Origin: Patescibacteria group bacterium
Lineage (GTDB): Bacteria; Patescibacteriota; Patescibacteriia; Patescibacteriales; WJLG01
Length of the DNA stretch: 64,000 nucleotides
Reading direction: 5' to 3'
Assembly (NCBI GenBank): GCA_041652555.1
Contig: JBAZHE010000001.1
Span: forward strand, 2,847-66,846
How positions within the stretch are numbered: the first letter of the stretch is position 1; the number at the start of each line of letters is the position of its first letter. The notes beneath the pieces are model-generated. The model was not told the origin of the DNA. It ran no database searches and was given only the letters and a program-made list of their open reading frames with translations. Shown piece after piece: positions 56,809 through 57,633 of this stretch. The position numbers and the translations under genes are program-made.

Positions 56809-57633
56809 TTATTTGGCAACCCCGATTTTTAGATACCGAGCGACAAGAAATATTACCGCTTCCAACCCGAGAAGGCCAAGGGCGAGCCAAGAACTCGTTA
56901 TCAAGGCACCGGCTATAGCAGAAGAAGCAACGGAGATTAGCGAAGATATTATAGATTTTTTTATATCTTTATCCGCCGCCGCCGCCACCGCCGCCGCCGC
57001 CATCGCCACCGCCGCCGCCGCCATCGCCACCGCCGCCGCCGCCATCGCCACCGCCGCCGCCGCCACCGCCGCCGCCGCCACCGCCGCCACCGCCGCCGCC
57101 ACCGCCGCCGCCACCGCATTATCATCATTTTTAACGCGGAGAGATAGTCCGGAAAGCAGGGAGGCGAAAAACAGCAGAGAAAAGGAAACGATCAACCAGA
57201 TGGAAGTTTTTTCTTGGTCGGATTTTTCCTGCCATTTGAATTCTTGGCAGGAAGAGTCGGCGCTGGAATATTTTCCGACCAGGAATTTTTTGTTATCCTG
57301 ATACTTTGGAATTAATCCTTGCCAGAAAAATTTTGTCGGCAGAGTTTTTTCCGTTACGAAAATTACCGAATCAGGATGCTGATAAAGGTTTATCAGCCAT
57401 TTGTTTCCCAGATTAACCCCAGACGGTACTCGTGGTTTGTTTTTGAAAAACGCCACTGGTTTTAAAATCATTCTCCCTTCACAATCCTGTAAATATTCAA
57501 GATTGTCTTGAAAAATGTAATAAGGACTGCTCATTCCGTAACGCGCCGGACCAGAAATTGCAACTAATGAGAGATACTCTTCCGCTAGGGTTGGAAAAGA
57601 GAAAACGAGGACTACAAAAATCAACCTATTCAT
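56809..57633 (-). CDS. secreted/membrane protein with a 48-residue Ala/Val/Met low-complexity tract
   Basis: AGGAGG lies 7 nt upstream of the ATG. The protein has a signal peptide (MNRLIFVVLVFSFPTLA), a 2-Cys ectodomain, a TM helix, an (A/V/M) tract and C-terminal hydrophobic helices. It has its own promoter and terminator. Confidence 0.75.
   Translation of the reverse strand: MNRLIFVVLVFSFPTLAEEYLSLVAISGPARYGMSSPYYIFQDNLEYLQDCEGRMILKPVAFFKNKPRVPSGVNLGNKWLINLYQHPDSVIFVTEKTLPTKFFWQGLIPKYQDNKKFLVGKYSSADSSCQEFKWQEKSDQEKTSIWLIVSFSLLFFASLLSGLSLRVKNDDNAVAAAVAAAVAAVAAAAVAAAAVAMAAAAVAMAAAAVAMAAAAVAAAADKDIKKSIISSLISVASSAIAGALITSSWLALGLLGLEAVIFLVARYLKIGVAK
56973..57117. repeat. GC-rich triplet-phased tandem repeat (GCC/ACC/ATC units; 3 x 21 nt, then 15, 15, 9, 12, 12 nt)
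   Basis: CACCGCCGCCGCCGCCATCGC occurs three times in tandem at 56986-57048, followed by shorter CAC(CGC)n units. All periods are multiples of 3. Confidence 0.9.

Follow-up and report, generated by a model that had tools for sequence, protein, structure and literature searches.

Coding microsatellites, also discussed under the term 'cryptic simplicity', go through a cycle of birth, expansion, interruption and decay, and codon purity within them marks slippage. Eukaryotic polyalanine tracts encoded by GCN or (GCG)n codons, among them those of PABPN1, HOXD13 and PHOX2B, lie in nuclear proteins and are subject to pathogenic expansions. Classical bacterial contingency loci either switch expression by frameshifting or carry variable hydrophilic extracellular repeats, and their polymorphism has been demonstrated. 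Transmembrane (TM) segments arising de novo from thymine-rich intergenic sequence were reportedly described in yeast by Vakirlis et al. 2020. Triplet-repeat dynamics and low-complexity regions are known mostly from soluble or extracellular segments, and mostly from eukaryotes. Here, a GCG-type triplet repeat inside the gene of a 274-amino-acid (aa) membrane protein was characterised in a stretch of 64,000 nucleotides (nt) from a Patescibacteria group bacterium (assembly GCA_041652555.1, contig JBAZHE010000001.1, positions 2,847 to 66,846). The whole stretch is referred to as the window, and coordinates are counted from its first letter unless another locus is named.

Our preferred interpretation, which we regard as probable, if not strongly so, is that the GCG microsatellite encodes the hairpin of the second and third TM helices (TM2-TM3) in a five-helix membrane anchor, and that this hairpin is a low-information filler with a life cycle of expansion and decay. 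On sequence grounds the gene is assigned to a small, fast-evolving and unannotated family in Patescibacteria genomes (Falkowbacteria/Parcubacteria-like), and the sequence pattern in this family suggests that the GCG repeat was regenerated repeatedly during evolution.

Composition and periodicity of the repeat

The tract consists of 48 codons (residues 173-220) of only three kinds, GCG (36), GTG (9) and ATG (3), and its translation on the coding (-) strand is AVAAAVAAAVAAVAAAAVAAAAVAMAAAAVAMAAAAVAMAAAAVAAAA. An original prediction, made from the letters alone, had proposed a triplet-phased tandem repeat at 56973-57117, and Tandem Repeats Finder reported a single array at these positions with a period of 21, 6.9 copies, 92% matches and a score of 213. 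The array was also scored at periods 6 and 15, and among the window's 69 arrays no other came near it in strength. The predicted unit layout was matched as well, with three perfect copies of a 21-nt unit (none expected by chance) and further units of 15, 15, 9, 12 and 12 nt as read on the + strand. A span of 27 codons keeps the 7-codon period; when the codons of the tract were shuffled 2000 times, one shuffle equalled this. On these figures the locus is a triplet-phased tandem coding repeat. Pure GCG runs extend to 4 codons at most, and Ala runs accordingly to 4 residues, being interrupted by the 9 Val and 3 Met. No further copy of the 21-nt unit was present in the window with up to 3 mismatches allowed, and no paralogue, other Ala-tract or other segment of purine-ending (NNR) codons was found within the window, so that the proposed search for further Ala-tract proteins came back empty there.

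The GC content of the 145-nt block starting at 56973 is 89.7%, against 36.3% for the window, and no other sampled 145-nt block of the window exceeded 60%. In the other long open reading frames (ORFs) of the window, GCG accounts for 18.5% of Ala codons and GTG for 16.8% of Val codons, while all 36 Ala codons of the tract are GCG; amino-acid selection alone therefore cannot account for the codon purity of the tract. No stop interrupts the tract in its other frames or on the opposite strand. That both strands are open had been pointed out before and is true, but it is an automatic outcome of GCG, GTG and ATG codons, which make no stops, and is not evidence for a second gene. For the same reason an ORF of 162 aa exists at 56813-57301 (+), antisense through the tract; it reads as an Ala/Thr/Ile-rich peptide and could be mis-annotated by gene callers.

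As single-stranded DNA the tract takes the form of a long slipped hairpin (-67.5 kcal/mol, z = -9.4), and the fold of its mRNA reaches -92.7 kcal/mol (z = -6.25 against dinucleotide shuffles). Both strong z-scores mirror the GCG periodicity. The perfect repeat of 63 nt within a 145-nt low-complexity block approaches the length of short reads, and the assembled copy number may be off.

Probable placement in the membrane

An alignment of 15 family members showed that the tract fills the segment between the R-x-K-N loop after TM1 and a K-x-L-K loop before TM4. In distant members the same segment is a pair of ordinary TM helices with a short polar turn between them, as in the P0003 hairpin, GGIAVGVVFVMPIAMTMAV-KEP-MMAIATLLAAIAAGVAACAIV. 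Turns in other members read VEDN (P0005), SDN (P0004), GPG..TD (P0006) and RED, and turn-type residues also occur in P0001 (P, T) and P0002 (N, P). In the AlphaFold model of the window protein the tract forms two helices, at residues 170-193 and 198-220, with a break at 194-197 and a predicted local distance difference test (pLDDT) score of 68-81. The original description made the tract a spacer that separates one TM helix from further hydrophobic helices; the alignment and the model instead place two TM helices there.

Hydrophobicity was in keeping with this placement. The Kyte-Doolittle mean over 19 residues was 2.07-2.43 in the tract, no lower than in the other TM helices of the protein. 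The Hessa scale, taken as a simple sum without position terms, gave -0.01 to +0.62 kcal/mol for the tract against +1.5 for TM4 and +2.4 for TM5. At 48 aa the tract is long enough for two spans, and comparison with related genomes, as had been proposed, gave 40-57 aa for the segment across the family. Length variability, the other property originally expected of the tract, was thus seen over evolutionary time, but not as free variation, since so narrow a range speaks for a requirement that the segment cross the membrane twice. With position, hydrophobicity and a length of 40-57 residues conserved, the hairpin looks like a hydrophobic element of low information content. We take the tract to encode a membrane hairpin rather than an assembly artefact or a linker.

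Purine-ending codons in related genes

DNA was obtained for 10 family members including that of the window, and codons of the class [GA][CT][GA], which comprises GCG and its transition products (eight codons), were counted. In the TM2-TM3 segment they numbered 48/49 in the window, 47/50 in P0007, 52/57 in P0001, 40/47 in P0002, 34/56 in P0004, 29/44 in P0003, 28/56 in P0010, 25/49 in P0005, 21/40 in P0006 and 16/44 in P0008. TM1, TM4 and TM5 of the same genes held 5-15 such codons per 63-64 and showed equilibrium codon use, and a GCG-derived codon make-up was confined to the TM2-TM3 segment in all 10 members. On the preferred interpretation, the window and P0007 would represent a fresh state and P0001 and P0002 an intermediate one, and P0003-P0010 (other than P0007) would have decayed to ordinary-looking TM helices with a polar turn. 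Third-position A, and then third-position pyrimidines, become more frequent step by step as one passes from the fresh to the decayed members.

At four-fold degenerate codons of the segment, purines occupied 89-100% of third positions, whereas elsewhere in these genes the share was about 50%. The counts were 45/45 in the window, 43/43 in P0007, 37/37 in P0001 and 37/38 in P0002. Single members further down the series still reached 27/27 (P0006), 26/27 (P0003) and 35/37 (P0004), and the six distant members pooled gave 163/184 in TM2-TM3 versus 307/588 in the rest of the genes (p = 1e-20). A scan for purine third positions covered the window (17,043 sliding windows in 53 ORFs) and loci L001, L005, L007 and L010, and found TM2-TM3 to be the sole 40-codon stretch in any long ORF with at least 85% purines.

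Higher-order units differ between members. P0001 carries a perfect 15-nt unit, GCA GTG GCG GCG ATA, twice (AVAAI; 3 of 2000 codon shuffles), and P0007 carries 15-nt units encoding VAMAA and AAAAL that are marginal (134 of 2000 codon shuffles). Slippage or duplication in multiples of three, as originally proposed, is supported by the 21-nt unit in three copies in the window and the 15-nt unit in two copies in P0001, with the 5-codon period of P0007 marginal. No significant tandem unit was detected in the TM2-TM3 segment of 7 of the 10 members. The P0007 tract, from a metagenome-assembled genome (MAG) at NCBI, is near-pure, with 50 aa and 81% GC, and in a neighbour-joining tree it is nested among the decayed P0005, P0009 and P0010. 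The TM2-TM3 segment could not be aligned between lineages at the DNA level.

Relatives, host gene and flanking genes

When 1.84 billion representative proteins were searched exhaustively with a profile, 17 matches came back, 15 true relatives and 2 unrelated repeat proteins; the family is very small. An exact look-up of the window protein gave no record, and no close variant was found in protein and contig collections. A word-seeded search with residues 1-172 recovered P0001 and P0002 only, to which the family profile then added P0016 and P0017 only. The first contig scan with family motifs recovered no relative, and a metagenome motif scan yielded one extra copy of the P0002 allele only, which ends inside the tract.

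No family had been recognised for the ectodomain by the original prediction, and none emerged for the protein. The best Pfam match (E = 0.021, 14.6 bits against a cut-off of 35.6) involved TM regions only, and no family was common to more than one of the 15 members. NCBIfam gave nothing above cut-off, with sub-threshold matches in hydrophobic regions; the PDB sequence profile search gave a best E of 0.33; and Foldseek gave no significant match, with a best E of 0.37 in PDB and 0.089 in BFVD. Several of the weak Foldseek matches are NTF2-like entries, which are only a lead for the fold of the ectodomain.

Full-length members have a common architecture of signal peptide, ectodomain of about 125 aa, TM1, basic R-x-K-N loop, hydrophobic stretch of 40-57 residues, second basic loop, two TM helices and basic C-terminus. 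Residues W104 and P109 are invariant in the family ectodomain, and the conserved core in the window's subclade comprises W104, P109 and the block LPTKFFWQG.IPKY...LVGKYSSADSSCQEFKWQE. The AlphaFold model, built with 15 sequences, had a mean pLDDT of 75.8 and a predicted template modelling (pTM) score of 0.60, with pLDDT 84-90 for residues 61-140, and it contained helices at 145-167, 170-193, 198-220, 224-246 and 250-267. By the positive-inside rule the three basic segments would be cytoplasmic, giving a putative N-out surface protein anchored by five helices.

The features of the host gene are listed in Table 1. The signal peptide, promoter, ribosome-binding site and terminator attributed to it by the original prediction were all located, the promoter as TTGACA-17-TATCAT, the ribosome-binding site as AGGAGG and the terminator as a hairpin with a U-tract. 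The terminator-like hairpin has a minimum free energy (MFE) of -20.2 kcal/mol (z = -3.78), and it was missed under the stricter criteria of a terminator scan.

Table 1 Features of the 274-aa gene, its tract and its flanks in the window
Feature	Position	Strand	Basis
GCG-type tract, 48 codons, residues 173-220	56974-57117	-	aligned with the TM2-turn-TM3 hairpin of the family
Three perfect 21-nt copies of GTGGCGATGGCGGCGGCGGCG (VAMAAAA x3)	56989-57051	-	direct sequence scan
274-aa gene, member of an unannotated Patescibacteria-like membrane-protein family	56809-57633	-	ORF and family searches
Sigma-70-like promoter TTGACA-17 nt-TATCAT, TG upstream of -10	57696-57724	-	11/12 matches
Ribosome-binding site AGGAGG, 6 nt before ATG	57640-57645	-	read from sequence
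Predicted signal peptide, residues 1-17, MNRLIFVVLVFSFPTLA followed by EE	57583-57633	-	hydrophobic leader conserved in family; putative cleavage site
Extracytoplasmic alpha+beta domain, residues 18-142	57208-57582	-	alignment and AlphaFold
TM1, residues 143-165	57139-57207	-	alignment, AlphaFold, hydrophobicity
Conserved basic loop R-x-K-N after TM1	57118-57138	-	alignment
Basic loop DKDIKKS, residues 221-227	56953-56973	-	3 K/R; probably cytoplasmic by the positive-inside rule
TM4-TM5 hairpin, residues 228-268, then basic C-terminus KIGVAK	56830-56952	-	alignment, AlphaFold, hydrophobicity
Terminator-like hairpin, 12/13 pairs, then UUUUUAUUUUUAUU, between the 274-aa gene and uvrC	56744-56785	-	MFE
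uvrC, directly downstream of the 274-aa gene	55233-56687	-	conserved neighbour
UvrD/AddA-like helicase with PD-(D/E)XK nuclease domain, divergent	57870-60935	+	Pfam domains of orthologous neighbours

At all seven related loci with a readable annotated downstream gene, this gene was uvrC in the same orientation, and six of the seven also had a divergent UvrD/AddA-like helicase upstream, as in the window. The UvrC proteins of the six related lineages compared were 54-64% identical to that of the window. The closest UvrC proteins in GTDB genomes (49-67% identity) came from MAGs labelled Candidatus Falkowbacteria or Parcubacteria, which places the organism in the Patescibacteria (CPR). The genome with the closest UvrC (67%) is L014, whose family member (3041-3949, -) is very divergent at 29.5 bits, so that the family evolves much faster than its neighbours. 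The L014 gene is convergent with uvrC, not upstream of it, and encodes ordinary TM helices without the purine footprint. L014 and L016 are labelled 'uncultured Gammaproteobacteria', yet they rank with Falkowbacteria and Parcubacteria MAGs among the closest UvrC matches. The MAG that carries P0007 (L007; GCA_035506055.1, DATJQC010000025.1) has the NCBI label 'Candidatus Nanoarchaeia archaeon' and is probably mis-binned or mislabelled, because its uvrC is bacterial and it has the UvrD-like helicase and the gene order of the Patescibacteria locus.

Genes downstream of uvrC were viewed at L001, L005, L007, L008, L009, L010 and L095. A DUF4340 protein gene (302 aa) lies on the opposite strand just past uvrC at most related loci, and the longer loci continue with ABC_transp_aux (GldG-like), ABC-2 permease and ABC ATPase genes; the window instead has a family-2 glycosyltransferase beyond uvrC, at 54425-55210. 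The UvrD/AddA-like helicase beside P0005 (L009 496-4827, -) has 1443 aa with Hint and Intein_splicing domains and thus contains an intein. At L008 (3625-6136) both the family gene (93 + 244 aa) and uvrC (179 + 309 aa) are split by frameshifts, which are probably sequencing errors rather than pseudogenes, because an intact allele of 298 aa, P0019, exists in another sample. Elsewhere in the window, at 4574-4738 (-), tRNA-Val(GAC) adjoins a tRNA-Ile with anticodon TAT that decodes ATA directly, and ATA makes up 28% of the Ile codons in the window.

Discussion

The proposed life cycle would start from the tolerance of the hairpin for sequence change, which would let a GCG microsatellite live in a coding segment and may be the cause of its turnover. 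Replication slippage or unequal recombination could expand GCG-derived units in multiples of three, and older units would presumably be lost by slippage or unequal recombination, also in frame. GC-to-AT transitions, which dominate the mutational pressure in AT-rich genomes, would then turn GCG (Ala) into GTG (Val), GCA and ACG, and later transitions would lead to ATG, ATA, GTA and ACA (Met, Ile, Val and Thr). The path from Ala through Val to Met or Ile would raise hydrophobicity, with Thr as a side product and the exception, and rarer transversions may give Leu, Gly and the Pro or Asn of the turn.

At the divergence given by the UvrC comparison, synonymous sites are expected to be saturated, and it would follow that either the DNA of the segment is younger than the lineage splits or the segment is under a synonymous constraint of its own. 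A single ancient (GCG)n insertion followed by slow decay is ruled out, since third positions of the segment are still 89-100% purine at 54-64% UvrC identity. Regeneration is favoured because the higher-order units differ between lineages, because the fresh P0007 tract nests among decayed sisters, because the codons present form a graded series reachable from GCG by C-to-T and G-to-A changes, and because the single-stranded DNA of the tract folds into a slipped hairpin. Slipped hairpins promote slippage in repeats of the CGG/CCG type.

Several points weigh against recurrent renewal and the hairpin topology. Ongoing slippage is suggested by the sequence pattern only, and arrays with pure runs of at most 4 codons and 3 unit copies slip at modest rates. 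A lasting synonymous constraint specific to the segment would explain the purine bias without renewal. The decayed P0006 keeps purines at all 27 four-fold codons despite many first- and second-position changes, so that the renewal model needs fast adaptive amino-acid change after each expansion. The most distant member, that of L014, has no purine footprint. The family is tiny, and the comparison covers only 10 lineages with DNA and a quick neighbour-joining tree. As to topology, the window tract and P0007 lack any polar residue or turn promoter (Pro, Asn, Asp, Glu, Gly or Lys) at the centre, and long uniformly hydrophobic stretches need a turn residue to form a hairpin, as known from von Heijne-type experiments; for this reason it is uncertain whether the modelled two-span hairpin or one long span applies to the window allele.

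A further step, which we put forward tentatively and would not ourselves bet on, is that the hairpin is a self-renewing coding microsatellite, rebuilt time and again by GCG expansion and matured by GC-to-AT pressure, whose fresh alleles would be length-polymorphic.

Among the rival explanations, the one that survives best is a contingency-type locus, which takes up the length-variable spacer of the original prediction. The mutable repeat would be kept because rapid, reversible in-frame length changes within populations are advantageous, possibly by adjusting how long the hydrophobic part is, how the protein oligomerises, or at what height or in which topology the ectodomain is displayed. We consider this unlikely. 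It is in agreement with unit lengths that are all multiples of 3, with the perfect 21-nt array, with the independent unit duplications in P0001 and, marginally, P0007, and with the slipped hairpin of the tract DNA; the host would also be exposed at the surface of episymbiont-type bacteria, for which variation in surface proteins is plausible. However, the segment keeps to 40-57 aa even between lineages that diverged deeply, as would be expected under stabilising selection on its length, most members are decayed and without tandem units, so that mutability is not conserved, and the variable part is buried in the membrane and not exposed. Pure GCG stretches of 4 codons or fewer fall short of a long homogeneous array, and classical contingency loci carry many more copies. 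No polymorphism was observed, with only the decayed alleles P0002 (5 samples) and P0003 (at least 4 samples) comparable across samples; both were 100% identical over the gene and 500 bp on either side, a comparison that has no power for fresh alleles. Clusters of relatives at 90% identity had 1-3 members each with identical tracts, and the look-ups were by exact sequence, which cannot reveal length variants. One 11-kb metagenome contig with the P0002 allele (L006 4531-4562; JGI Ga0182027_10014207) ends 11 codons into the TM2-TM3 tract. This end, which could be cited for a contingency locus, fits assembly difficulty as well as heterogeneity, and it suggests that assemblies tend to break there.

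Slightly less credible still is selection on synonymous sites, by which the purine-ending codons of TM2-TM3 would be kept for a nucleic-acid function and would not descend from (GCG)n. Candidates for such a function are a translational pause as TM1 emerges, a G-rich structure of mRNA or DNA, and an overlapping element, and the window repeat would then be an extreme outcome. The persistence of the bias in members without repeats (P0006, P0003 and P0004) at 54-64% UvrC identity speaks for it, as do the strong fold of the window tract's mRNA and the start of the tract 8 codons after TM1, from which TM1 would be leaving the exit tunnel during translation of the tract. Several findings speak against it. 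RNA folding was no better than that of same-codon shuffles in any of the 10 lineages (z = -0.1 to -2.1), by which a conserved mRNA structure is ruled out; purine-ending codons make up about 50% of four-fold codons in these genes, which weakens a pause at rare codons, and with an N-terminal signal peptide the nascent chain should be targeted already; and the lack of any DNA-level alignment of the segment between lineages argues against a conserved sequence element. Moreover, the codons are mostly 1-2 transitions from GCG, which is predicted by renewal and decay and not by a generic purine preference.

That the tract is a mis-assembled low-complexity insert, or a soluble, flexible or coiled Ala-rich linker outside the membrane, strikes us as very improbable. 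High-GC, hairpin-forming repeats of read length are hard to assemble, and one related contig does break there, but the frame is intact, both flanks are conserved, and independent assemblies carry like tracts at the same site and length, such as the 50-aa tract of P0007. Weak NCBIfam matches to Ala-rich linkers (BCCP and CmpA, E = 0.09-0.44) are far below the NCBIfam cut-offs, and in the relatives the homologous positions are taken up by classical, I-, L-, F- and V-rich TM helices. The tract has no charged or Pro residues, which soluble Ala-rich linkers typically contain.

The variable region of a diversity-generating retroelement is ruled out, as the window contains no template copy, even with up to 3 mismatches allowed (no scan for a reverse transcriptase was made there), and the differences of the tract from GCG are C-to-T and G-to-A changes and do not lie at adenines. 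L007 alone has a bAvd-like gene. At 5941-6234 (-), several genes away from the family member, a 97-aa gene gives a match to 23S_rRNA_IVP and a weak one to bAvd, the accessory protein of diversity-generating retroelements; the L007 stretch examined showed no reverse transcriptase.

The locus presents a pure GCG/GTG/ATG repeat that appears to encode membrane helices in an AT-rich, reduced bacterial genome, together with a graded series in relatives that leads at one site from fresh repeat to ordinary-looking TM hairpin. In the literature searched, no description was found of an intramembrane hairpin made from a pure triplet repeat with a family-wide synonymous footprint. If renewal is real, the family is a natural system for the origin and replacement of TM segments from simple DNA, and it would show directional mutation pressure, from Ala through Val to Met or Ile, improving a new segment. 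If the hairpin is in addition self-renewing, it would not be inherited residue by residue but generated from a triplet repeat as an ongoing process, which may let episymbiotic bacteria vary the anchor of a surface protein. The analysis also defines a previously unannotated membrane-protein family of Patescibacteria, adjoining uvrC at the loci with a readable neighbourhood, and draws attention to a site where copy number may be wrongly estimated in metagenome assemblies. In practical terms the impact is modest, as the organisms are uncultured and the protein is known from its sequence alone; the tiny size of the family also limits the weight of the case.

Comparison with described systems

Compared with eukaryotic polyalanine tracts, the present tract likewise uses GCG for Ala, and in both the in-frame expansion by several codons can be attributed to unequal crossing-over or slippage. 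The eukaryotic tracts are soluble and uninterrupted, with about 10-20 Ala, whereas this one is 48 aa long, lies in a membrane anchor and has Ala runs of at most 4, with Val or Met at every 3-7 residues; the uninterrupted run of about 10 or more Ala of a homopolymeric polyalanine does not occur in it. The de novo TM segments of yeast are similar in that biased DNA yields a hydrophobic, membrane-competent peptide with little sequence information. Unlike them, the tract is a GC-rich triplet repeat within an existing gene of an AT-rich genome, and it would replace or renew an existing hairpin without creating a new gene.

Among bacterial systems, contingency loci and size-variable repeat surface proteins (for example PMC11466379) likewise have a tandem repeat inside the gene of a surface-exposed protein, with unit lengths that allow slippage. 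The units of the present tract are all multiples of 3, and its segment is intramembrane and conserved in length. Between bacterial strains, low-complexity regions are conserved least when they are A-rich or polyA (PMC8004648), and this poor conservation accords with a rapid turnover of the tract. The A-rich example of that study is a short inter-domain linker, whereas the tract is an intramembrane, pure triplet repeat of 48 residues.

Coding microsatellites offer several further parallels. Codon purity is a hallmark of slippage in amino-acid repeats (PMC1557989), and here one codon, GCG, dominates a tract that has point-mutation interruptions and duplicated higher-order units. Orthologues are found at differing stages of decay, and the repeat cannot be aligned between them while its flanks are conserved. 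The tract differs from these microsatellites in encoding membrane-spanning helices in a bacterium of 36% GC and in the persistence of its footprint at one site across lineages with 54-64% UvrC identity. It would differ, too, in the consequence of decay, as the change from Ala through Val to Met or Ile would improve the fitness of the segment for the membrane and would not destroy its function.

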